From Acidimicrobiia bacterium (GTDB lineage: Bacteria; Actinomycetota; Acidimicrobiia; IMCC26256; JAENVU01): a stretch of 64,000 bases of DNA. Below the pieces are notes generated by a model. It did no database searches, was not told where the DNA came from, and was given only the letters and a program-made list of their open reading frames with translations. Below, piece by piece: positions 2,206 through 25,069 of the stretch; position 1 is the first letter of the stretch, and each line of letters begins with the position of its first letter. The position numbers were made by a program, and so were the translations under genes. The stretch spans positions 58,801 to 122,800 of the forward strand of contig JBBSAM010000003.1 in assembly GCA_038252255.1 (NCBI GenBank), given 5' to 3'.

Positions 2206-3765
2206 ATGCATGGACGCATGAATCAGCGCCCTGGATGGCGCATCATCATTCTGACCACCGCGCTCCTCGTGGGCACGGCCGCACTGGTCACGCAGGGCGC
2301 GAGCAGCGCGAGCTCCGACGTCGTCACCGCGACGTTGGCGCCCGTCGCCGACGCGTACGTGGACAGCGCGAAGCCGACGACGAACTACGGGACCAACGCG
2401 CGACTCATGGCCGACGCGTCACCCGTGCGGCAGAGCTTCTTGCGCTTCGATCTCACCGCGCTGTCGGGGACGGTGCAAGACGCGCGCCTCCGCATCCACG
2501 TCGCGAACGTCACCGACGCCGAGAGCCCCGCCGGCGGAACCGTCGCGCTCGTGACCGAGACACCGTGGACGGAGAGCAAGATCACGTACCGGAACCGGCC
2601 GACCGGCTGGGGTGCGACCGTGGCGACGATCGGTGCGGTGCAGCGGAACACGTGGATCGAGGTTCCGGTCACCGATGCGGTGACCACCGGCGGCGTGCTC
2701 ACCCTCGGCATCCGTTCGACGAATGACGACGGCGCGTTCTACGACAGCCGCCAGACCAAGGCCACGCCGCCCCAGCTCATCGTCACCACCGCCACGACCA
2801 GCAGCTCGTCCACCACCGACAGCTCCTCGACCAGCTCCTCGAGCTCGTCGACGACCTCCAGCTCGTCCACGACCTCCAGCTCGTCCACGACTTCGAGCTC
2901 GAGCTCCACCACCTCGACGTCGACCACCACGACGACGCGTCCGCCGCCGGACGGCTCCGTGGTCAACGTCGCCGCCGTCGGCGACATGGCCTGCACCCCC
3001 GGGAGCTCGGTCACGTCGTCGAGCTGCCAACAGATGGCGGTCTCGAACCTGATCGTCAACGACCCGGACAACCAGCTCTTCCTGGCGCTCGGCGACCAGC
3101 AGTACGAGAACGGCGCGCTCACCGGGTTCCAGACCTCGTACGAGCAGAGCTACGGCCGGATCAAGAACAAGACCAGGCCCGCAGCGGGCAACCACGAGTA
3201 CGGCACGGCCGGCGCGAGCGCGTACTTCACGTACTTCGGCGCCGCGGCCGGAGAGGCCGGCAAGGGCTACTACAGCTTCGACGTCGGCAACACCTGGCAC
3301 GTCGTCACCCTGAACTCCAACTGCGACGTCGTCTCGTGCGCGGCGGGCTCGCCACAGGAGCAATGGCTGCGCGCCGACCTCGCCGCGACGACGCGACCCT
3401 GCGTGATCGCCACCTGGCACCACCCGCGGTTCTCGTCGGACTACAGCAACACACCGGTCGCACCGTTCTGGAACGCGCTCCAGGATTACGGGGTCGAGCT
3501 CAACCTCTCGGGCCACGAGCACAGCTACGAGCGCTTCAACCCGCAGCTGCCCAGTGGCGCCGCGAGCGCCAACGGGGTGCAGGAGATCGTCGCCGGCACC
3601 GGGGGGCGGAACCTCGACGTGTGGAAGACGCCGCTACCCAACAGCGCGGCGCGAATCTCCGCGTTCGGGGTCCTGAAGCTCCAGCTCGCCGACAACAGCT
3701 ACTCGTGGCAGTTCGTGGACCTCAACGGCACCGTGCGCGACAGCGGCACCCGCGCCTGCCACTAG
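2206..3765 (+). CDS. Secreted protein: N-terminal DNRLRE-like domain, Ser/Thr-rich linker, C-terminal metallophosphoesterase
   Basis: A signal peptide is present. The N-terminal part (LAPVADAYVDSAKPTTNYG...RQSFLRFDL) looks DNRLRE-like. The linker is about 45 aa of S/T. Calcineurin-like motifs follow: GDMAC, GDQQYENG, GNHEY, GHEHSYERF. Confidence 0.8.
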   Translation: MHGRMNQRPGWRIIILTTALLVGTAALVTQGASSASSDVVTATLAPVADAYVDSAKPTTNYGTNARLMADASPVRQSFLRFDLTALSGTVQDARLRIHVANVTDAESPAGGTVALVTETPWTESKITYRNRPTGWGATVATIGAVQRNTWIEVPVTDAVTTGGVLTLGIRSTNDDGAFYDSRQTKATPPQLIVTTATTSSSSTTDSSSTSSSSSSTTSSSSTTSSSSTTSSSSSTTSTSTTTTTRPPPDGSVVNVAAVGDMACTPGSSVTSSSCQQMAVSNLIVNDPDNQLFLALGDQQYENGALTGFQTSYEQSYGRIKNKTRPAAGNHEYGTAGASAYFTYFGAAAGEAGKGYYSFDVGNTWHVVTLNSNCDVVSCAAGSPQEQWLRADLAATTRPCVIATWHHPRFSSDYSNTPVAPFWNALQDYGVELNLSGHEHSYERFNPQLPSGAASANGVQEIVAGTGGRNLDVWKTPLPNSAARISAFGVLKLQLADNSYSWQFVDLNGTVRDSGTRACH

Positions 3766-4280: not shown

Positions 4281-4341
4281 CATTCCGGACACCGCGGTGC
4301 GACTGGGCACGGACGCCGCGTCGATCCGACTCACCCCAAGG

Positions 4342-7065
4342 ATGGGCAGAATGCTCGCGTCGTTCACTGCGGCCTTCATGGCCGCGGCACTGCTCGTGTT
4401 CGCAATCCCCGCGACTCCCGCGCACGCGGCAACCACGAACGGGGTGCACGCGCCACGCGCGGCAACCGGCCGCCGAACCGCGCCGCGACCGAAAGCGCCG
4501 TTCGTCCGTCCGTCGAAGCCGTTGGCCAGCGCGCGCTACGCGGTGTCGCGGGTAGACGGTCGGAGGACCGCGGGAGCCGTGCGCGCATCAGCCGCGGTGC
4601 GGGCCGCGGCCGCGCAGGAGTCGGCGAGCGCGCCGAACCGGCTGAGTGCCCTCGCCACCGACACCACGCCACCGACCGCGCCGAGCCAGCTCGTCGCGGG
4701 AGCGCAGCAGCTCTCGACGATCACCGCGCAATGGAACCCGTCCCAGGATCCCGAGTCCGGCATCGCGTCGTACGCGTTCGCCGTCGGGACGAACAGCTCC
4801 GGGACTCCGACCGCCTTGGCGAACGTGCGGTGGTGGCAGATCACCTACTCGCCCAACATCTCCGTCAACCTGAGCCTCGACCCGAACCTCACGTACTACG
4901 TGTCCGTCTACGCCTCGAACGGGGCCGGTTTGACCAGCACGGTCGTGACGAGCGCGCCGATCCACCCCGCCTGGACCCAGCTCGGCCAAGCCGGCAACGT
5001 GATGCAGCTGCGCTTGGCGACGACCGGGCTCGACGCGAGCGGGAACCCGACAACCGGGTGGACGCCGGATCAGGTCGCGCTCATGACGACCTTCTTCAAC
5101 AAGATGTACCCGATCCTCCTCGCGATCTACGGGCCTCCGGCGGACAGCTACACCGTGACGGCCGTGCGCGACCTCCGGTACACGAACAGCAACGTGTTCA
5201 TCCCCTCGCTCGACGAGATCCACATGTCCGATGCCTTCTACCCGCAGCTGTTCACCCACGAGCTCGTGCACGCGTTCCGCAACGACCGGCTCCTCTCGAG
5301 CGACGCGAGCTGGAACTTCAACTCGACGCTGTCGCCGTTCGAGGAGTCCTTCGCCCAGGCCGTCAGCTACGACGCGATGAACGCCTACGTCGCCGCATAT
5401 CCCAACGACACCCTCGTGCCCGGCACCTCGCTGTTCGGTTCGAGCAACGACTGGGACTACGACTTCCAGAACGTGCCCGAGCTGCGCGGCACCGACTTCT
5501 GGAGCGACGGCGGGGCCACCGGCCTCTACTGGACCAAGTACGAGATGGGCGCGGCCGCGATGCGCAAGATCGAGCTGGAGTCGCCGGGCTTCTTCAAGCG
5601 CTTCAACGCGGAGTACTACCGCCGCATCAACGCGAACCCGACCGTCGTGCGGCCGACCCGGGCCCTCATCGTCGACATCATCGCGACGTTGGTGCCCCAG
5701 ATCGAGGGTCGCCCGGCCGCGGACTGGGTCGACAGCCAGAACATCTTCTACGCGCAGAACGTCTACGGGGAGAAGATCTTCCACCGGATCCAGGACTACC
5801 CCTACATCGATCTCTTCGCGTTCCAGGACCTGTACTTCCTGAACACGATGTCGTGCGGGAGCGAGTGGGCATGCTTCGACGGCACCGCGTGGACGTACCA
5901 CCGGTTGAACGGCGCGATCGGCAGCGGCCGGCTCCTCAATGCCGCGGGCAGTCCCGTGTGGTCCGGGGGCCTGCAGATCCAACCGACGCAGAACCCGTCC
6001 GACGGCTACTACGGGATCGGCTTCGCGCGGAAGAGCCTGACCACCGCCACCACGCTGCTGCCGTGGCCGGGCGGGAGCGAGAACGACTACGTGATGAACC
6101 TGCGGACGTTCGGCTTGTACAAGTTCGAGAGCACGTTCGCGGATCCCGCCACGCAGGCGAGCACCACGAACAGCATCTACCGGGTGATGGGCGGTGACGT
6201 CGCCAACAACTTCACCGGCGTCTGGGGCGGCGTGCTCGGCCACACCACGGGCACGCTGTACCTGAACCACGAGGGCTACGCGACGGAGCCGGGCATTCCG
6301 GTGACCAACGGCGCGTTCGCGGCGACGAGGACCTGGGCCGGGGTGGCCAACCCGCGCACCGGTGGTCGCGACTCCGTGCCGGGGCGGGTCTTCGCCACGT
6401 TCGTGGACGGCCAGACGGGCCAGAGCTACACCGCGCAACGCAACGTCGACTACGGCAGCGTGAACGGCAACCAGATGTTCCTGTTCGACTTCACCGGTCC
6501 CGGAGTGGACGCCACCGCTCCCACTGTGGCGATCTCCAGCCCGGCGAGCGGCGCGAGCCTCTCGGCCGCGACGACGATCAGCGCGTCCGCATCGGACAAC
6601 GTCGGGGTGACGCGCGTCGAGTTCCTGGTCGACGGCAAGCTCGTCGCCACCGACACGTCGGCGCCGTACTCCACCTCGTGGAACGCGGCCGCGGCGACGC
6701 TGGGCGTGCACACGCTGACGGCGAAGGCGTACGACCAGGCCGGCAACAGCGCGACGTCCACCGCCGTATCCGTGACGGTGGCCGATGCCACGGCGCCGAC
6801 CCTCACCATCACCAAACCGAAGAACGGCAGCACCGTGAGCCGCAGCTCGAGCGTGACGATCGCAGCCACGGCAACCGACAACCGGAGCGTGGCCAAGGTG
6901 CTCTTCTACGTGAACAACACGTTGAAGTGCACGGACACCACCAGCGCGTACACGTGCGGGTGGTCGGTGCCCTCGGCGAGGGGCGTGAAGTACACGATCC
7001 GGGTCCAGGCCTACGACAGCTCGAACAACTTCGCCGAGAGGTCGGTGACCGTCACCTCCAAATGA
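4342..7065 (+). CDS. Large secreted multidomain protein: signal peptide, FN3-like domain, HExxH-containing central region, two C-terminal Ig-like domains
   Basis: The signal peptide is MGRMLASFTAAFMAAALLVFAIPATPAHA. HELVH is encoded at 5257-5271. Two paralogous ~90-aa Ig-like repeats follow (ATAPTVAISSPASG... and ATAPTLTITKPKNG...). The start could instead be 4297 or 4351. Confidence 0.75.
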   Translation: MGRMLASFTAAFMAAALLVFAIPATPAHAATTNGVHAPRAATGRRTAPRPKAPFVRPSKPLASARYAVSRVDGRRTAGAVRASAAVRAAAAQESASAPNRLSALATDTTPPTAPSQLVAGAQQLSTITAQWNPSQDPESGIASYAFAVGTNSSGTPTALANVRWWQITYSPNISVNLSLDPNLTYYVSVYASNGAGLTSTVVTSAPIHPAWTQLGQAGNVMQLRLATTGLDASGNPTTGWTPDQVALMTTFFNKMYPILLAIYGPPADSYTVTAVRDLRYTNSNVFIPSLDEIHMSDAFYPQLFTHELVHAFRNDRLLSSDASWNFNSTLSPFEESFAQAVSYDAMNAYVAAYPNDTLVPGTSLFGSSNDWDYDFQNVPELRGTDFWSDGGATGLYWTKYEMGAAAMRKIELESPGFFKRFNAEYYRRINANPTVVRPTRALIVDIIATLVPQIEGRPAADWVDSQNIFYAQNVYGEKIFHRIQDYPYIDLFAFQDLYFLNTMSCGSEWACFDGTAWTYHRLNGAIGSGRLLNAAGSPVWSGGLQIQPTQNPSDGYYGIGFARKSLTTATTLLPWPGGSENDYVMNLRTFGLYKFESTFADPATQASTTNSIYRVMGGDVANNFTGVWGGVLGHTTGTLYLNHEGYATEPGIPVTNGAFAATRTWAGVANPRTGGRDSVPGRVFATFVDGQTGQSYTAQRNVDYGSVNGNQMFLFDFTGPGVDATAPTVAISSPASGASLSAATTISASASDNVGVTRVEFLVDGKLVATDTSAPYSTSWNAAAATLGVHTLTAKAYDQAGNSATSTAVSVTVADATAPTLTITKPKNGSTVSRSSSVTIAATATDNRSVAKVLFYVNNTLKCTDTTSAYTCGWSVPSARGVKYTIRVQAYDSSNNFAERSVTVTSK

Positions 7066-7119
7066 CCTGCTGGCGGGCGGGCCGGGATGACTGTCACACC
7101 CTCTCGGTAGCCTCGGGCC

Positions 7120-10100
7120 ATGCTCCATCTCTCGGCTTCCGATCGCGTCCGTCCGCTCGCGGACGCGCTCGCCGGGGTGCTGGCGACCCCGCTCCCCGAC
7201 CCGATGAAGCCGGAGTGGGTCGCGATCCCGACCGACGGGATGCTGCGGTGGCTGCAGCTCGAGCTGGCCCGGTCGCTCGGCGCGACCGGCCCGGGCCGCG
7301 GCGACGGTGTCGCGGCGAACATCGAGTTCCGGTTCCCCGACGCGCTGCGCCGGGCGGTGCTCGACGCGGACCGGGCCGACGGTGCCGCCGACCCGTGGCA
7401 CGTCGACCATCTCGTGTGGGCCGTGCTCGACGTGCTCCACGCGAGTCGCGATGACGACCGGCTCGGTCCACTCACCACCCTGCCCGCGGGCGGCACCTGG
7501 TTCGGCCGCGCCCGCCGCCTCGCGGACCTGTTCGATCGCTACGCGGTGCGGCGCCCGGAGCTGATCCGCCACTGGAACGAGCACCGCGACGTCGATGCCG
7601 CGGGGTTCAAGCTCGAAGCGCACGACCGGTGGCAGCCACATCTCTGGCGCCTCACGCGCGCGTGCATCGGCGAGCCGAGCCCGCCCGAGCGCTTCCCCGC
7701 CCTGCTCGACGGGTTGCGCGCCGGCACGCTCGAGCCGGAGCTCCCACCGCGACTCGCGGTCTTCGGCATCACCACCCTGCCCGGCGGCGCGCCGTTCCTC
7801 GACCTCGCGCACGCGCTCGCGCAGCACCGGGAGCTCCACCTCTTCCTGCTCGACCCGTCGCCGTCAGCCGTCGCGACCGTGCACGACTTCGCCCGCGCGG
7901 CCCACCCGGAGGCGGAGCTCCTGCGCACCGACGACGAGTCCGCGGCCGCCGTCCGCCATCCGTTGCTGCGCTCGTGGGGGCGTCCCTACCGGGAGCGGAC
8001 CGTCCTGCTCACCGCGGCCGAGCCCACGGGCTGGCCCGAGCCCCTCCGGATCGGCGACGTGAGCCACGACGACGACGCCGATGCCCGGCCGGCCACGCTG
8101 CTCGCCCGGGTCCAAGCCGACCTGCGGGCGGACGTGGTCCCGGCCGGCGACTTCGCGCTCGCCCCGGGCGACCACTCGATCCAGGTGCACTCGTGCCACG
8201 GGCCCGGTCGTCAGGTCGAGGTCCTCCGCGACGCGATCCTGCACCTGCTCGCGGACGACCCCACCCTGCGCGAGGAGGACATCGTCGTCCTGAGCCCGGC
8301 GATCGAGGAGTTCGCGCCGTGGATCGAGTCGGGCTTCGGGACGTCGGCCGACCGCACGCCCGGCGACGGCGCGCCGGGCCGGCCGCAGCTCGCGTACCGC
8401 ATCGCCGACCGGTCGTTGCGCGACTCGGTTCCGCTGCTCGCCGCGCTCGACACGCTGCTCGAGCTCGTCGCGGGTCGCTTCACCGCGTCGGCGGTGCTCG
8501 AGTTCCTCGCGCTCGCGCCCGTCCGCACCCGGTTCGACCTGGACGACGACGCCATCGCGGCCATCGGCCAGTGGATCACCGAGACGAACGTGCGCTGGGG
8601 TCTCGACGGCGCGCACCGCGAGCCGTGGGGCGTGCCGGCCGGGTACTCGGCCAACTCGTGGCAGGCCGCGCTCGACCGGCTGCTCATGGGGATCGCGGTC
8701 AGCGAGGACGACTGGGCGCTGGCGGCCGGGGAGATCGCGCCACTGGGGGTGGAGGGCGGCGACATCGTCGTCGCCGGACGCCTCGCCGACGTCCTCGCCC
8801 ACCTCGCCGAGATCGCAGCGGACCTGGAACGCCCCCGCGCCGCGGCCGAGTGGTGCACCAAGCTGCTCGACGTGAGCGACCGGCTGTTCTCGGTCGAGTC
8901 CTCGCAACAGTGGCAGCAGGACCGGCTGCGCCGGACCATCGCGGACATCGCCGACGCCGCCGCGGTCGGCGACCGCGCGTCCGGCGTCGAGCTGACCCTC
9001 GCGGATCTCCGCCGCCTGCTGGTGGAGCGACTCCGAGGCGCGCCGCGCCGGCCCGACTTCTTCCGGGGTGGGATCACCTTCAGCTCGCTCACTCCCCTGC
9101 GCTGGCTGCCGTTCCGGGTCGTCTGCCTGCTCGGCCTCGACGAGGACGCGCTCGGTACCGAGGCCGCCGACGGCGACGACCTCGCCGCGCTCGTGCCGCG
9201 CCTCGGCGACCGTGATCCCCGCGCCGAGCTGCGCCAGACCCTGCTCGAAGCGGTGCTCGCCGCGCGCGACCACCTCGTCATCACCCGCACCGGCCACAAC
9301 ATCCTCACCAACCAGGATGTGCCGGAGTCGGTCCCGTTCGCCGAGCTGCGCGACACGATCACGGCCACGTTGGCCGGCAGTGCCCGCAACCCGTTCACGG
9401 CTCAGGTCGAGACCGTCCATCCCCACCAGCCATTCGATGCCCGCTGCTTCGAGCCCGGGGCGCTGCGCCACGGGCCGTGGAGCTTCGACGCCACCGCGCT
9501 CGCCGGTGCGCAGGCGCGGGCGCGCCGCACGGACGAGACGGCGCCGTTCCTCACCCGGCCGCTCGCCGCACCCGCCGACCCGGCCCGGGTGATCACGCTG
9601 GCCGAGCTGCAGTCCTTCCTCAACCATCCCGTGAAGTGCTTCTTCGCCCGCCGCCTCGACGTCTACCTCCCTCGCGAGGAGGGCGGGCTCTCGGACCACC
9701 TGCCGATCTCGCTCGGCGGGCTGGCGGAGTGGTCGGCGGCGCAGCGGCTCATCGAGGCCCGGCTCGACGGGCGCACGAGCGAGCAGTGGGCGCGCCACGA
9801 ACGGGCGCTCGGCACGCTCCCGGCCGGCGGCTACGGCGATCTGGCCCTCGCCCGGATCACCGGCCTCGTCGACGCGCTGCTCTCGACCACCACCGCGCTC
9901 GGAGTCGACCCTCGCCACGACGACCCGCAGCCGATCGACGTCGAGCTCCCGGACGGTACCCGCATCGTCGGTGCCGTCGACCTCCGCTGCGGGTCGGAGC
10001 GCCCGGGTCCGGCCCGGCTGACGTTCAGCAAGGCCCAACCGAAGCATCACGTCGAGTCGTGGCTCGATCTCATGGCGCTCGTCGCGCACGATCCGGAGGC

Positions 10101-18517: not shown

Positions 18518-19231
18518 GTGGCGGGCATGCCGCGTCCCGAGGCCGTCCTGCTCGATGCCGGGGGTGTCTTCTTCCTGCCCGAGCACGAGCGGATCATCGG
18601 CGCGTTCGAGCGGGCCGGATTGCCGGCGCCCACCGAGGATCTGGACCTGGCCCACTTCCGCGGTGCGTCGCGGTTCACCACCGATCTCGACGTCGAGGCG
18701 GACTGGGCCGGTTGCTGGGATTCCTACCTGGACTCGTACGTCGAGGCGCTGGACGTCGCGCCGCTCGACCGCAAAGAGATCCACCGCCACCTCGACAGCG
18801 AGTTCGCCGACGCCGGGCTCTGGCTGCGGGTGATCCCGGGGTGTCGTGACGGGATCCGCGCGCTCGCCGGCACCGGGGTGCGACTCGGCGTGATCTCGAA
18901 TGCCGACGGGCTCATCGGCGAGCGTCTCCGCAGCTTCGAGCTCGTACAGGTCGGTCCCGGCATCGGCGTCGAGATCGAGTGCGTGATCGATTCCGGAGCG
19001 GTCGGTGTGATGAAGCCGGACCCGCGCATCTTCGAGATGGCCCTCGACGCGATGGATCTCGCCGCGGACCAGGCGTGGTACGTCGGCGACATGCCCGCGA
19101 TCGACATCGTCGGCGCCCGCCGCGCCGGGATGCATCCCGTGCTCGTCGACCCGTACGACCTGCACCACGAGGCCGACTACGACCGGGTCAGCTCCCTCAC
19201 CGAGCTCGCGTCCCGCATCACCACGGATTAG
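18518..19231 (+). CDS. HAD family hydrolase
   Basis: HAD motifs are present: LLDAGGV, GVISNADG, KPDPRIFE, YVGD. Confidence 0.8.
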   Translation: MAGMPRPEAVLLDAGGVFFLPEHERIIGAFERAGLPAPTEDLDLAHFRGASRFTTDLDVEADWAGCWDSYLDSYVEALDVAPLDRKEIHRHLDSEFADAGLWLRVIPGCRDGIRALAGTGVRLGVISNADGLIGERLRSFELVQVGPGIGVEIECVIDSGAVGVMKPDPRIFEMALDAMDLAADQAWYVGDMPAIDIVGARRAGMHPVLVDPYDLHHEADYDRVSSLTELASRITTD

Positions 19232-19239
19232 GCGCGGGC

Positions 19240-19300
19240 TTACCCGCGGCGGGCCCAGACCGCGTAGAGCGGGTCGCGCTTCCCCGCGCTACTCGATGCT
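19240..19300 (-). pseudogene. Putative orphaned 3' remnant of the disrupted SAM-methyltransferase gene
   Basis: The minus-strand frame ends ...AGKRDPLYAVWARRG-stop. I recall DPLYAVWA as the conserved C-terminus of this methyltransferase family. The position is convergent with, and 8 bp from, the HAD stop. Confidence 0.4.
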
Positions 19301-19386
19301 TGTCCAGCGTCGTGACCTTCGGCCCTGGTGACGCGGAAAGGCTTGGGCGTACGATTTTGTGAGTAGGCGGGGCAAGGGGGGTAGTT

Positions 19387-20049
19387 GTGACCGTACGGAT
19401 CGCAGGGCGACGCTTCATTGTCTCGGTCTCTGCGGGGGTCTTGGTACTCGGAGGGTTGGCTGCTTCGGCGGTTCCTGCGTCCGCGGCAACCAAACCTCCG
19501 CCCTTCGTCGCGACCGGTACTGTCAGCTGCACCTATAAGAACCTCGTGTTCAGGCTCACCCCTGGTCTCACGGACACACCGACAGTGCAGTCCACGACCT
19601 TCAAGGGCCACGCAAGCTGTACCGGTACGACGGGCAACCCCGCGGTGACGCTGCGGTCCGCTACCGTCACCGGCTCGCTTCACAACTCGAGCCCCGTGAC
19701 CTGCAACGACGTTCTCGGAGTGCCAGAGGCGAAGGCGGTCTCAGGTCCGGCGGCGAAACTCGACGCGGGTGCCCTCAGCTCGCAATCGCTGATCGGTGGA
19801 CTCGTGCGATGGAAGGCACGGCAAGCCAAGGTGTTCGACTCGCAAGTTTCCTTCGATGCTTACGCCTTCGTGGGCGGCGTGTACAGCGTGCCCTACCCGG
19901 GGGGTAACGCCGGAGTGCTCAGCGGCTCTTACCACGGCGAGCAGTTCAGCTCGACCGCGACCGGGCTTCGCTACACGGGACGCTGCAATCGGAAGAGCGG
20001 CATCAGATCGATGCACTTCGGGATCGCAGCCTTCAAGATTCAGCCCTGA
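19387..20049 (+). CDS. Secreted Cys-containing protein of unknown function, carried on a lower-GC insert
   Basis: GTG start. The signal peptide ends ASAVPASA-ATKPP. Codon GC3 is visibly lower than in neighbouring genes. I recognise no domain. Confidence 0.6.
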   Translation: MTVRIAGRRFIVSVSAGVLVLGGLAASAVPASAATKPPPFVATGTVSCTYKNLVFRLTPGLTDTPTVQSTTFKGHASCTGTTGNPAVTLRSATVTGSLHNSSPVTCNDVLGVPEAKAVSGPAAKLDAGALSSQSLIGGLVRWKARQAKVFDSQVSFDAYAFVGGVYSVPYPGGNAGVLSGSYHGEQFSSTATGLRYTGRCNRKSGIRSMHFGIAAFKIQP

Positions 20050-20617
20050 GCAACAACGCAGAGCCAGCGGCGTATCCCAATCTGACGCTCTCATTCGAGA
20101 ACGTGCACACGAACCGTCCACCGGGTCGCACGACGCGGGCCAGATTCGCGAACACCTCGACGGGCCGGGTGAGGTAGTCGACCGATACGCAGCACACGGC
20201 GTCGTCGAACGCGCCCGCCGCGAACGGCAGCCGCGGGTCCTCGTTGAGGTCGTGCACGGCAGTTGCTGCGGCCATCGGGTTGGCGGCCAGCTCGGCGGCG
20301 TTCATGCCGAGCACGGTCAGGTGCGGGGGCGGGGACCGGAAGTGCGAGACCCACGAGCCCATGAGGTCGAGCACCGTGCCGTCGATCCGGAGCTCGTCGT
20401 AGAGCTCGCCGACCGCCGCGATCGCCCCGTCATCGATGTGGGTCACGAGCCGCGCGACCGCGTAGAACTGGTCGTCCACCGCGGGGTCGGACCGGTCGAA
20501 GAAGCCGGGCAGGAACGGGGTGGGCTCCACGAGCCCCAGTCTGGCCGGACATGACGAGGCCCCCACCGTGCGGACCTGGGCGGGCACACGCAGGGTGGGG
20601 ACCTCGCCCGTGAACAT
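20033..20617 (-). pseudogene. Class I SAM-dependent methyltransferase, apparently 3'-truncated (family-like sequence ends at ...CTFSN near 20093)
   Basis: FFDRSD...LVTHIDD...VLDLMGSWVSHF...VCCVSVDYLTRPVEVF...RPGGRFVCTFSN is followed by unrelated lower-GC sequence (ESVRLGYAAGSALLLRAES). That tail overlaps the 19387 gene. Confidence 0.6.
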
Positions 20618-20723
20618 ACGACGCCACCGGGCTCTGGACGCGGACCCCGACCGCAGGTGACTCCGGTCACCTCCACCTGACGTGAGGGTGACGGCTGCGC
20701 GCGATCGGCGGCATCATGGCCCG

Positions 20724-21389
20724 ATGGTCGAGCGGGTACGGATCACGGTCGGCTCCGGCCGCGTGAGAGTGATCGGCGAGCCACGTCACGACGTGGCGGT
20801 CGACGGCGCGGAGTCATCGGGCTCCGAGGCGGAGCTGGCCGTGCGCGGCGGCTCCGACGACGTCACCGTGCGCGTGCCCTCGGGAACCGAGGTCATCGTG
20901 GGCAGCGGGTCCGGGGACGTCACGCTCACGGGTCTGCTCGGCGCGGTGAGCGTCACCACGGGCAGTGCCGACGTCGAGGCCGAGGACGTCGGGTCGATCG
21001 ACGCGCGCACGGCCTCCGGAAAGCTGACGGTCGAGGAGAGTCGCGGGTCGGTCCGCTTGCGCACGAAGAGCTCCAGGGTGCGGATCGGGCGGGCCATCGG
21101 GGACGTGCACGTCGCCGCCGTGTCCGGGAAGGTCGACGTCGGCGAGGCACGGGACTCCGTGTCGATCAAGACCGTGAGCGGCAACGTCGACGTCACGGTC
21201 ACCGGATCGGGCGCGATCGGCATCGAGAGCGTCTCGGGCAAGATCAAGATCCACGTCCCCGAGCGCGCGCGCCCCCGCGTGGAGCTGCGCAGCATGAGTG
21301 GGAAGCGCAGGGTCGAGTGTGCGACCGGTGACGATTTCGTGATCTCCGGTCGCTCCATCAGCGGCAACCTCACGGTGACGACCGAGTGA
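20724..21389 (+). CDS. DUF4097-type beta-strand repeat protein (putative adhesin-like fold)
   Basis: SG(D/K)V repeats recur throughout (GSGDVTL, GSADVEA, ASGKLTV, VSGKVDV, VSGNVDV, VSGKIKI, ISGNLTV). An alternative GTG start is at 20682. Confidence 0.75.
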   Translation: MVERVRITVGSGRVRVIGEPRHDVAVDGAESSGSEAELAVRGGSDDVTVRVPSGTEVIVGSGSGDVTLTGLLGAVSVTTGSADVEAEDVGSIDARTASGKLTVEESRGSVRLRTKSSRVRIGRAIGDVHVAAVSGKVDVGEARDSVSIKTVSGNVDVTVTGSGAIGIESVSGKIKIHVPERARPRVELRSMSGKRRVECATGDDFVISGRSISGNLTVTTE

Positions 21390-21940
21390 ACGCTCCGGCG
21401 CAGTCCGAAGGCGCGCTCGCGTTCACAGACCTCGTCGGCTTCACGGAGTTCACCGCGACCCGCGGCGATCAGGAGGCGATCGCGATCCTCGGCGCCCAGG
21501 AGCGGATCGTGGATGGCGCGCTCCCGGCCGGGGCCAGGATCGTGAAGGAGCTCGGCGACGGCCTGCTCCTCTTCCTGCCCGACACCGATTCGGCGATCTC
21601 GGTGTGCCTCGAGATCCTGGCCGGCTTCGACCGGGCCGCCGCCGACGATGAGATGCCCCTGTGGGTCCGGGCCGGCCTGCACTGCGGCCGCGCCGCCCGC
21701 CGCGGCGACGACCTCATCGGTCACGACGTGAACATCGCTGCGCGCATCGTCGACATCGCCGCTCCCGGTGAGCTCCTGTGCTCGGGCGCCATGTTGCACA
21801 AGGGCGCGCCGCACGACGGCTCACTCGAGTTCGTCGAGCTGGGACCGGTCGTGATGAAGGGCATCCCCGAGCCGATCGACCTCTACCGGGTGGAGCGGCT
21901 CGACGTGCCGCGCGGCGATCGGGTCTCGGTCCAGCCGTGA
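21386..21940 (+). CDS. Class III adenylate/guanylate cyclase, catalytic domain only (184 aa)
   Basis: FTDLVGFTEF...KELGDGLLLF...GLHCG...GHDVNIAARI. There are GTGA overlaps with both neighbours. Confidence 0.85.
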   Translation: MNAPAQSEGALAFTDLVGFTEFTATRGDQEAIAILGAQERIVDGALPAGARIVKELGDGLLLFLPDTDSAISVCLEILAGFDRAAADDEMPLWVRAGLHCGRAARRGDDLIGHDVNIAARIVDIAAPGELLCSGAMLHKGAPHDGSLEFVELGPVVMKGIPEPIDLYRVERLDVPRGDRVSVQP

Positions 21941-24448: not shown

Positions 24449-25069
24449 GTGGCGTTCGCAGGGTGGCCGGTCGAGGCGATCGAGTTCTTCGAGGGCTTGA
24501 CCGCCGACAACTCGAAGCCGTACTGGCAGGAGCACAAGGGGGTCTACGAGACGTGCGTGCGCGCGCCGATGGACGCCCTCCTCACCGAGCTCGAGCCGGA
24601 GTTCGGAGCCGGCAAGGTGTTCCGGCCCTACCGGGACGTGCGGTTCAGCGCCGACAAGTCGCCGTACAAGACCGCGATCGCCGCGACGCTCGACAGTGGT
24701 GGGTACCTGCACCTGTCGGCCGAGACCTTCGGGGTCGGTTCGGGGCTCTACCGGCCGGAGCCCGACCAGCTCGACCGGTACCGCCGAGCGGTCAGCGACG
24801 GGCGCAGCGGCGCCGCGCTGGTCAAGATCGTGGCCGCCGCCCGCGCCGCCAAGCTCGAGGTCCACGGCCACGAGGAGCTGAAGACTGCGCCACGCGGGTA
24901 CCCCAAGGAACATCCGCGCATCGACCTGCTGCGCCAGAAGGGCCTGATCGCGTGGCGCGAATGGCCGGTCGGTGCCTGGCTCGACACGTCGGCTCCGAAA
25001 CGCCGCGTGGCCGAGTTCCTGCATGCCTCCGAGCCGCTCAGGGCCTGGCTCGCCAAGCACGTCGGCTGA
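24449..25069 (+). CDS. DUF2461 (TIGR02453) family protein
   Basis: NSKPYWQEHKGVYE...FRPYRDVRFSADKSPYKT...LKTAPRGYPKEHPRIDLLRQKGL. Confidence 0.85.
   Translation: MAFAGWPVEAIEFFEGLTADNSKPYWQEHKGVYETCVRAPMDALLTELEPEFGAGKVFRPYRDVRFSADKSPYKTAIAATLDSGGYLHLSAETFGVGSGLYRPEPDQLDRYRRAVSDGRSGAALVKIVAAARAAKLEVHGHEELKTAPRGYPKEHPRIDLLRQKGLIAWREWPVGAWLDTSAPKRRVAEFLHASEPLRAWLAKHVG

Follow-up and report, generated by a model that had tools for sequence, protein, structure and literature searches.

Elements mobilized by large serine integrases, among them phiC31, A118 in comK, SPbeta in spsM and skin in sigK, reside within protein-coding genes; the attB and attP sites of such integrases measure 40-50 bp and have imperfect dyad symmetry around a central dinucleotide. 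Cryptic prophage remnants can keep a 'moron', or lysogenic-conversion gene, beside the attachment site. In mycobacteriophages, serine integrases act on protein-coding targets with common cores as short as 3 bp; Bxb1 inactivates groEL1 and Bxz2 integrates in a DNA glycosylase gene (PMC9262239). The mycobacteriophage tyrosine integrases use tRNA genes, with cores of at least 25 bp, and the gene is rebuilt (PMC9262239). Homology-facilitated illegitimate recombination (HFIR) has another signature, insertion of foreign DNA together with deletion of resident DNA, with 3-10 bp of microhomology at the illegitimate junction (PMC3240628). The locus considered here lies within 64,000 nucleotides of contig JBBSAM010000003.1 from an Acidimicrobiia bacterium (assembly GCA_038252255.1, positions 58,801 to 122,800), a stretch that is called the window below. 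In it, the gene of a methyltransferase (MT) dependent on S-adenosylmethionine (SAM) is interrupted by a foreign segment of about 0.8 kb, which carries a single open reading frame (ORF) of 220 codons, ORF220. The explanation that we favour, and hold to be fairly probable, is that integrative elements or prophages attach at one MT codon, and that the window has kept an attL-side relic of one of them after deletion of the rest of the element, of attR and of about 117-144 bp of MT.

A methyltransferase gene broken at one codon

The minus strand of the window carries an ORF of 194 codons (20033..20617) whose product ends ...RPGGRFVCTFSN/ESVRLGYAAGSALLLRAES, the slash marking the break. This product is assigned to the class I SAM-dependent methyltransferases by a match to Pfam Methyltransf_11 (PF08241; 32.1 bits for a cut-off of 21.2, E 1.8e-7), in which residues 127-171 align with profile positions 50-95. 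Its relatives number 6808 at E <= 0.001 and are typically about 206-213 residues long. In tblastn searches with three intact relatives, family residues 4-146 were found at 20521..20093, and a hidden Markov model (HMM) of 113 full-length family sequences matched the MT body with its positions 4-148. This 5' part is 78-84% identical to intact relatives, has a GC content at third codon positions (GC3) of 0.93 and contains neither stop nor frameshift. Past 20093, the frame runs through 20 unrelated codons to a stop at 20033, located 17 nt within the plus-strand ORF at 19387-20049. The original prediction, made from the sequence alone, had described this switch near 20093, and the tblastn, HMM and ORF data bear it out. 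In the protein database searched, the truncated MT is listed as a seemingly complete protein of 194 residues (P0001).

The 3' end of MT is found about 0.8 kb away. A minus-strand frame ending ...AGKRDPLYAVWARRG-stop (19240-19296) contains DPLYAVWARR, identical at 10/10 positions to the relative P0031 (E 7e-4 in a search of 2.1 kb, 0.002 over the whole window), and is matched by positions 188-205 of the family HMM (E 0.002-0.003). It is colinear with the MT body, being on the same strand in a different frame, and has native codon usage. Its stop lies 8 bp from the stop of a HAD-family hydrolase gene (19231). The orphaned 3' end that had been proposed here is thus a real one. It amounts to 11-18 MT codons, with a secure core at 19240-19275 and a profile match extending to 19296. 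It may reach as far as ~19326-19340, where RAEGHD..SSAGKRDPLY resembles the C-terminus of the relative P0003 with a marginal E of 0.087. The MT codons in between, RCFPTKAIRGWL...RRT..., number 39 by the profile (HMM positions 149-187) and 48 by BLAST. No part of the window contains them, so that their relocation within it is ruled out. The complete class I fold (family positions 147-208, to GDPLYAVWARR) is neither contiguous nor in frame in this MT. The event is a replacement rather than a clean insertion, about 117-144 bp of MT having given way to about 800-817 bp. The initial idea of an MT split by an insert was therefore right as to the interruption and has to be amended as to its nature, since 39-48 MT codons are missing.

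A class I fold requires strands beta-6 and beta-7 after the RPGGxFV motif of strand beta-5. Relatives of known structure in the PDB align with the window MT only as far as this motif and have at least 70 residues more beyond it; the full C-terminal region after beta-5 is retained in 98 of 105 relatives. A core of 146 residues followed by a foreign tail of 20 residues is very probably inactive, and the inactivation would be irreversible because the Rossmann-like fold has lost all that follows strand beta-5. Two features, the undamaged MT 5' part with its native codon usage and the un-ameliorated GC3 of ORF220, suggest that the event is fairly recent.

An alignment with a relative lacking the insert agrees with this description. 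The ENA metagenome contig L140, which encodes the intact relative P0002, is 84% identical in nucleotides over window positions 20815..20094, including the start of the DUF4097 gene, the leader and MT. The similarity ends exactly at the Asn codon; next come 156 nt that the window lacks, and then L140 positions 879-896 align to window positions 19264..19247. L140 has no counterpart of the foreign segment. Empty sites comparable to that of the window come from L140 and from the contig of P0003, at 84% nucleotide and 71% amino-acid identity, respectively.

The same break was observed in other lineages. Among the best 119 of the 6808 MT family matches, P0029, P0047 and P0085 also read ...TFSN/E... 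and stop after 5-37 codons. P0047 ends FSNEYVRLGYLPD..., with 37 further residues, P0029 ends FSNEYRVPEYVVRA and P0085 ends FSNEWSRRG. The DNA of P0047 is a locus (L022) of a GTDB metagenome-assembled genome (MAG), comprising 12.4 kb of CAWAGX010000020.1 (455945-468373, reversed), and the DNA of P0029 and P0085 consists of JGI metagenome contigs (L141 and L142, respectively). At all four junctions, TTC TCG AAT is immediately followed by foreign DNA, namely GAG AGC GTC AGA TTG GGA TAC in the window, GAG TAC GTC CGG CTG GGA TAC in L022, GAG TAC CGC GTT CCC GAA TAC in L141 and GAG TGG AGT AGG AGA GGA TAG in L142. The N-terminal parts of the four broken MTs are 71-76% identical to one another. Their nearest intact relatives are P0043 for P0029 (96.5%), P0082 for P0085 (86.5%) and P0002 for the window (84%), and an intact protein at 78% for P0047. 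In a neighbour-joining tree of 105 sequences, the common ancestor of the four is the root of the whole tree. Judged from these sequences, the four breaks are independent events, since the broken MTs are scattered over the tree, each nearest to different intact relatives. A truncated MT carried together with its flanking motif by a mobile element was considered and rejected, as each broken MT has different intact chromosomal relatives and the window MT keeps its upstream synteny. The tails of the four proteins are unrelated beyond about seven residues, and MT is not rebuilt at the junction.

Occupation of the same nucleotide in three other lineages points to site-specific integration, and the mechanism, which had been left as unclear in the original prediction, is to that extent narrowed down. 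The TCG AAT bases are found at 4/4 occupied sites; among 76 empty sites, TCG is present in 62% and AAT in 24%. At occupied sites, these bases are probably part of the recombination core or were brought in by the element. The shared target-side sequence that could serve as a core is at most TTCTCGAAT, about 9 bp.

On the foreign side, the four junctions share, in register, the 21-nt element end given in Table 1. Its sum-of-pairs identity is 70/126, and among 200,000 draws of random internal windows from the four foreign segments (mean 34, maximum 61), 0 reached 70. A single copy of the motif is present in the window, and in the whole set of fetched loci it is confined to the junctions, apart from one chance match in a low-GC phage. 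Beyond the first 21 nt, the foreign segments of the four occupants share nothing. An 8-4-8 dyad spans the junction (ACGTTCTC-GAAT-GAGnnCGT), with 7/8 complementary positions in the window and L022 and 4/8 in L141 and L142. The weak inverted matches that had first been proposed near the two borders, at 19343-19353 (TTGGGCGTACG) and at 20070-20080 (GCGTATCCCAA), do not stand, since they agree at 5/11 ungapped positions, which is chance level; the second overlaps the conserved element end at 20072-20092. A second half-site was sought at 19331-19352 and the candidate was rejected, only TTGGG..TAC matching.

One of the occupants carries phage genes. The foreign DNA of L022 extends over at least 6 kb with a GC content of 0.57-0.66. 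It encodes a Phage_capsid protein (PF05065, E 4e-28), classified in PHROG as a major head protein and 50% identical to Gordonia phage capsids (E 1e-44), as well as fragments of the terminase large subunit, also recognized by PHROG. The structural genes are oriented towards the junction; tail and lysis genes are missing, which indicates that this prophage is itself decayed. Over the 6 kb of the L022 element that were covered, none of the scanned ORFs encodes an integrase or recombinase. The genes nearest the junction differ between occupants: ORF220 in the window, a beta-propeller-repeat protein in L141, a lipoprotein-like ORF (LIACGG) in L142, and in L022 two inverted cysteine-rich small ORFs with a 304-aa membrane protein. 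The two cysteine-rich ORFs (L022 6451-6801 on the minus strand and 7104-7826 on the plus strand) flank the membrane-protein gene beside the MT junction and have near-identical ends of about 45 residues, ...DGT(V/I)(V/A)GCTLD(D/E)DEDGCRGRELRHEGDP..C..W...GCNYCGV.., an inverted duplication within the element. They have no Pfam or PHROG match.

The foreign segment and its gene

The features of the locus are collected in Table 1.

Table 1. Features of the interrupted methyltransferase locus, in window coordinates
Feature	Position	Strand	Basis or remark
HAD-family hydrolase, native convergent neighbour of MT	18518..19231	+	Pfam Hydrolase/HAD_2/Hydrolase_like; GC3 0.90
Orphan MT 3' end, SSSAGKRDPLYAVWARRG-stop	19240..19296	-	tblastn, family HMM
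Foreign segment, 796-817 bp, read as attL-proximal relic	19297..20092	.	left edge uncertain, 19276-19340
Candidate promoter of ORF220, GTGACG-16 nt-TACGAT	19328..19355	+	putative, read from the sequence; below consensus-scan threshold
Shine-Dalgarno-like AAGGGGGG, 5 nt before the GTG start of ORF220	19374..19381	+	sequence
ORF220, secreted protein of 220 aa, four conserved cysteines	19387..20049	+	HMMER homologues
MT read-through tail, ESVRLGYAAGSALLLRAES-stop, element DNA, 17-nt overlap with the 3' end of ORF220	20033..20092	-	ORF list; GC3 0.60
Conserved element end GAGAGCGTCAGATTGGGATAC, consensus GAG-N12-GRATAS, abutting the break	20072..20092	-	in register in window, L022, L141 and L142
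Dyad across the junction, ACGTTCTC-GAAT-GAGAGCGT, 7/8 complementary	20085..20104	-	candidate recombinase core
MT 5' part, family residues 1-146, through the beta-5 motif RPGGRFVCTFSN	20093..20530	-	Pfam, family alignment
DUF4097 gene, native divergent neighbour of MT	20682..21389	+	Pfam
Cyclase gene, MT neighbour	21386-21940		Pfam
DUF2461 gene, MT neighbour	24449-25069		Pfam

The foreign segment has a GC content of 0.63, for 0.70-0.74 in its flanks, and its two non-coding stretches are at 0.61. No second copy of it is present in the window. A contig of a separate Logan assembly (L139, SRR19962010, 1400 bp) is 100% identical to window positions 18784-20183 and spans both junctions, so that the arrangement is not a chimera of MAG assembly. 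An artefact of assembly or binning was worth considering because the source is metagenome-assembled and the cargo protein nearly unique in public data, but it is extremely improbable in view of this contig, of flanks that are two parts of one gene and of the same type of junction in three other data sets.

Target-site duplications and terminal repeats were absent according to a repeat finder, to local alignments compared with shuffled sequences and to DNA folding of both ends, all at chance; the best end-to-end inverted or direct alignments of the insert ends were reached by 41-44% of shuffles. One inverted pair with 12/13 matches (19282-19294 and 19361-19372) was discarded, its score being reached by 113/500 shuffles. 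With no Rfam match at E <= 1 on either strand of 19000-20700, the segment is not a group II intron or another structured RNA element. No tRNA or tmRNA was found in the window, and a consensus promoter and terminator scan of the region returned no site.

The homologues of ORF220 show that it is a real gene; together they form a very small and uncharacterised family of secreted, beta-rich proteins with four cysteines. Exhaustive HMMER searches retrieved P0122 and P0123 (48% identity, E 4e-45 and 2e-37) and about eight distant members of 190-230 residues, and a profile search added two further members; a word-indexed homologue search and a metagenome scan returned ORF220 itself only. One match, to residues 122-155 in P0124 (1052 aa, about 11 tandem repeats, E 5e-12), looks repetitive and of low complexity and was left out of the alignments as spurious. 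All members have an N-terminal segment resembling a signal peptide, which by eye reads RR-FIVSVSAGVLVLGGLAASAVPASA/A in ORF220. C48, C78, C106, C200 and W142 are invariant and all present in ORF220, which is intact, and the family shares the motifs CTGTTGNPAVT, W(K/R)A and GSY(A/G)G. The homologues align from residue 7-8, which places the start at GTG 19387. A shorter version in a public database (P0121, 154 aa) begins at V67 and has no signal peptide; a Logan gene call (P0134) and the homologues back 220 residues. Upstream of the homologues, a purine-rich GGAGG-type box stands at the same place and no other element is common.

With an alignment of 11 sequences, AlphaFold2 modelled ORF220 as an all-beta protein with about nine long strands (pLDDT 80.8, pTM 0.73); the model obtained from the single sequence (pLDDT 31) was unusable. 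No significant Foldseek neighbour of the model was found in the PDB or among the BFVD viral models; eight-stranded barrel proteins appeared as weak top matches and were not treated as evidence of kinship. ORF220 has no match in Pfam, NCBIfam or PHROG, and its family had none among plasmids and phages (tblastn), INPHARED or IMG/VR (DNA and profile scans).

The GC3 of ORF220, 0.76, is the lowest of the 53 ORFs of the window, three standard deviations below their mean (0.90 +/- 0.045). The homologues found in hosts with 69-71% GC have a gene GC of 0.66-0.69, with GC1 and GC2 (first and second codon positions) of about 0.55 and GC3 of 0.84-0.92; the L136 homologue, in a genome with 71% GC, has a gene GC of 0.665 and a GC3 of 0.88. 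The low GC of the insert is thus partly a matter of amino-acid composition, as the homologues in high-GC hosts also have low GC1 and GC2, and only the GC3 deficit argues for a foreign origin. That the plus-strand gene encodes a signal-peptide protein and has low third-position GC had been seen from the start; as a mark of foreign DNA, low GC holds for the GC3 deficit and not for the part explained by composition. The L136 homologue, P0123, lies on a 980-kb contig (L136 6912-9523) between a divergent gene with an N6_N4 DNA-methylase domain and a convergent SCO2322-like gene. There is a local GC dip there (0.66 vs 0.70-0.77), and its surroundings showed neither a junction motif nor gene fragments.

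Attachment site, cassette or capture

The recurrence of the break, the conserved end and the phage genes in L022 support the first steps of the following scenario. In Acidimicrobiia-like actinobacteria, TTC TCG AAT (Phe-Ser-Asn, family residues 144-146) would repeatedly serve as the attachment site of site-specific integrative elements, of which at least one is an actinophage-like prophage. In the lineage of the window, integration would have separated the MT 5' part (20093-20530) from the 3' part and formed an attL in which the 5' part and TCGAAT are followed by the conserved element end GAG-N12-GRATAC (20072-20092). A later deletion, running from inside the element into the MT 3' part, would have removed the recombinase, attR and the 39-48 MT codons. 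It would have left behind the 0.8-kb relic, in which ORF220 has a ribosome-binding site and probably a promoter to itself, and, beside the HAD gene, the terminal 11-18 MT codons. ORF220 would then be a 'moron'-like cargo located next to the att site.

We infer that a recombinase made the junction. By analogy with known integrases, the chances that it was a large serine integrase may be put at about even; this type is favoured by a protein-coding target that is not rebuilt at the junction and by a common core of at most ~9 bp. Of what is expected from a site-specific element, recurrent occupancy with empty sites in relatives, a conserved end and phage genes (in L022) were found, and an integrase gene and a second junction were not; for this reason the segment is called the relic of an integrative element and not an element.

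Several observations weigh against this explanation. The four occupants are linked by 21 nt only, and for the junction dyad taken alone, folding energy and alignment score were no different from those of shuffled sequences. No attR was found in the window, which lacks the MT sequence due after it and contains the motif in a single copy; L022, L141 and L142 end before any second junction. The L022 locus also ends before any integrase, its phage genes are fragmentary, and the contigs L141 and L142 (1.6 kb) are too short for their occupants to be classified. As had been noted at the outset for transposases and integrases, the insert carries no transposase, integrase, excisionase or phage gene, and none was found in the ~4-8 kb on each side (15.4-27.9 kb). 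In IMG/VR, there was neither a matching attP nor a provirus flanked by MT; the motif scan of this database returned low-GC phages only, in about the number estimated by hand for chance, and neither the N-terminal nor the C-terminal part of MT was found in viral contigs. The relatives of ORF220 elsewhere (L135-L138 and the contig of P0132) are in ordinary chromosomal contexts with no junction motif. Finally, the small size of the relic would have to be due to a secondary deletion, a step fitted to what is missing.

It may be imagined that no such deletion took place, and that the segment is a complete non-autonomous cassette of ~0.75 kb, composed of a promoter, ORF220 and two half-sites and mobilised in trans by an integrase encoded elsewhere. 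In that case, TTGGGCGTAC (19343-19352) would repeat, in degenerate form, the outer half-site of the opposite end, TTGGGATAC. The sequence TTGGG(CG)TAC is indeed oriented as a second half-site would be, near the end of the weak MT trace (19326, E 0.087), and the chance of finding such a 9-mer with one indel in a zone of 150 nt is ~1-2% by a hand estimate; in addition, the relic is a self-contained expression unit. However, the inner 12 nt expected of this half-site are not present, nor are the MT codons that should adjoin it (147 to ~172); the end-to-end inverted similarity of the insert is at chance, and the other three occupants are not like 0.8-kb cassettes, that of L022 exceeding 6 kb with phage genes. 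We regard the cassette as unlikely. A broader form of the idea, in which the attB site in MT would be a one-slot integron-like site receiving exchangeable cassettes for secreted proteins, lipoproteins or membrane proteins, with the 0.8-kb segment as a complete minimal cassette, is quite unlikely.

A single illegitimate capture, by HFIR or by end-joining at a double-strand break, would replace ~140 bp of MT by 0.8 kb of donor DNA in one step. Such an event accounts well for an insertion coupled to a deletion, for a left junction with no recognisable site and for the lack of terminal repeats, target duplication and mobility gene. It leaves unexplained the 21-nt conservation on the foreign side and the TCG AAT bias; with a gene of ~620 nt, breaks at the same nucleotide in three further lineages would coincide with a chance of roughly (1/620)^3. 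As the origin of the right junction, a one-off capture is thus quite improbable; illegitimate recombination is probably a good description of the secondary deletion that formed the left one.

The broken genes might also represent a natural short form of MT ending ...FSNE-x-VRLGY..., the DPLYAVWARRG frame being a coincidence. The window FSNESVRLGY is resembled by FSNEYVRLGY... of P0047, and two of the differences between them are synonymous (CGG/AGA and CTG/TTG). Orthologues ending near FSNE, which in the original prediction would have spoken against a split gene, literally exist in P0047; they do not refute the split, as those genes are also interrupted and intact relatives are available, at 78% for P0047 and at 84-96.5% for the other three truncated genes. 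The tails are unrelated after seven residues and range from 5 to 37 aa, the DNA is unrelated after 21 nt, and everything after beta-5, kept by 98/105 relatives, is lost. Moreover, the orphan is identical at 10/10 positions to the family C-terminus; its strand and order are correct and its codon usage is native. A natural short form is very improbable.

Setting of the locus and comparison with known systems

The region is ordinary chromosomal DNA of a high-GC actinobacterium (71.6%), and the closest relatives of its genes are in MAGs labelled Acidimicrobiia or 'Actinomycetes'. According to Pfam, a GNAT acetyltransferase, an F420H2-dependent quinone reductase, YqeY and the HAD hydrolase precede the split MT region, which is followed by the genes of the DUF4097 protein and of an adenylate/guanylate cyclase and, farther along, of a DUF2461 protein. 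Intact MTs are flanked by matching neighbours in L140 and in the contig of P0003. The latter has kept, upstream of MT, a 224-aa protein, the cyclase and DUF2461; its MT, of 253 aa as called, is intact and 71% identical to that of the window. The conservation of DUF4097, cyclase and DUF2461 beside intact relatives indicates that MT occupies its ancestral chromosomal place and was once full-length.

On the HAD side, L081 (HAD 84% identical in amino acids) keeps the upstream YqeY-HAD order and has after HAD, at 1068-1373 (compared with the window from 19232 onward), a different plus-strand gene that is not MT. In the contig of P0003, the intact MT is followed by a cyclase of 461 aa and not by HAD. 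As these arrangements differ, the boundary between HAD and MT is a synteny break point among relatives. A search for an insert-free allele of the same species among 80 GTDB loci with MT relatives found no neighbours in common with the window, and MT was never downstream in 54 metagenome loci with HAD relatives, L081 being the closest.

A long and stable hairpin, GAGGUCCCCACCCUGCG...CGCACGGUGGGGGCCUC (20553-20606, minus strand), stands between MT and the DUF4097 gene. The RNA of 20545-20625 on the minus strand has a minimum free energy of -44.5 kcal/mol (z -2.9), and a near-identical hairpin (z -4.1) is found in the 84%-identical relative L140. In P0003 the hairpin sequence has been translated as an 'N-terminal extension' of the protein, ...VPAQVRTVG.... 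No Rfam family matched it. It is probably a leader RNA or an operator of the divergent MT/DUF4097 promoter region. The hairpin implies that MT starts at GTG 20530, which, from the annotation of L140 and the family alignment, is the probable start, rather than at ATG 20617.

Another stretch of the window has a low GC content (0.65 at 4800-6200). It belongs to plus-strand ORFs of 519 and 922 aa (2206-3765 and 4297-7065), in which GC1 and GC2 are low (~0.55) and GC3 is native (0.94). In contrast to ORF220, their low GC thus results from amino-acid composition and not from a foreign origin.

The relic of a prophage or integrative element at a protein-coding attB is of a known kind, and the locus otherwise reflects ordinary genome dynamics. 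What is new is the MT codon as target, the host group of uncultured Acidimicrobiia-like bacteria, the end motif and the cargo family. Site-specific integrases, large serine ones especially, are wanted for genome engineering, and attB sites are usually found experimentally. Here, a codon of an MT from uncultured soil Acidimicrobiia provides a candidate attB and one attP half-site for a recombinase. The locus also illustrates how an element may decay to one exported-protein gene while its target gene is permanently destroyed. An unexplained insert with no mobility gene becomes in this way a testable case, and ORF220 defines a very small family of secreted, beta-rich, four-cysteine proteins that has no described relative. 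In the databases, this history is masked by an MT that appears complete at 194 aa and by a cargo protein annotated from a wrong start (154 aa).

Among the described systems closest to the locus are prophages and integrative elements with large serine integrases. Like them, the occupants of the MT site have a fixed position in a conserved protein-coding gene that is inactivated and not rebuilt; target and element share at most ~9 bp, one occupant has actinophage structural genes, and conservation on the element side covers ~20 nt, which is the length of an attP half-site. Unlike them, no integrase gene, attR or attP was seen, and in the window the element is almost wholly gone together with a part of MT. 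Since this part of the target gene was deleted with the element, excision can no longer restore MT. As far as could be checked, neither the host clade nor the MT target is among the described attB sites. With cryptic prophage remnants, the locus shares a single self-contained gene for an exported protein at the end of the element, with its own ribosome-binding site and a GC3 below that of the host; it differs in its extreme size (0.8 kb, one gene) and in a cargo family with no match in PHROG, INPHARED or IMG/VR. Replacement of resident by foreign DNA, with no repeats and no target duplication, is also seen in HFIR or end-joining capture (PMC3240628), whereas recurrence of the right junction at one nucleotide in independent lineages, with a conserved motif on the foreign side, would not be expected of a non-specific process. 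Insertion sequences, miniature inverted-repeat transposable elements and integron cassettes resemble the segment in that a small piece of DNA interrupts a gene, and integron cassettes also in carrying a single gene, but the transposase, terminal inverted repeats, target-site duplication, attC-like hairpin and integron integrase that go with them were not found (~4-8 kb on each side for the latter). Tyrosine-integrase elements are set apart by their tRNA or tmRNA targets, of which the 64-kb window has none, and by the rebuilding of the target, which did not occur in MT.

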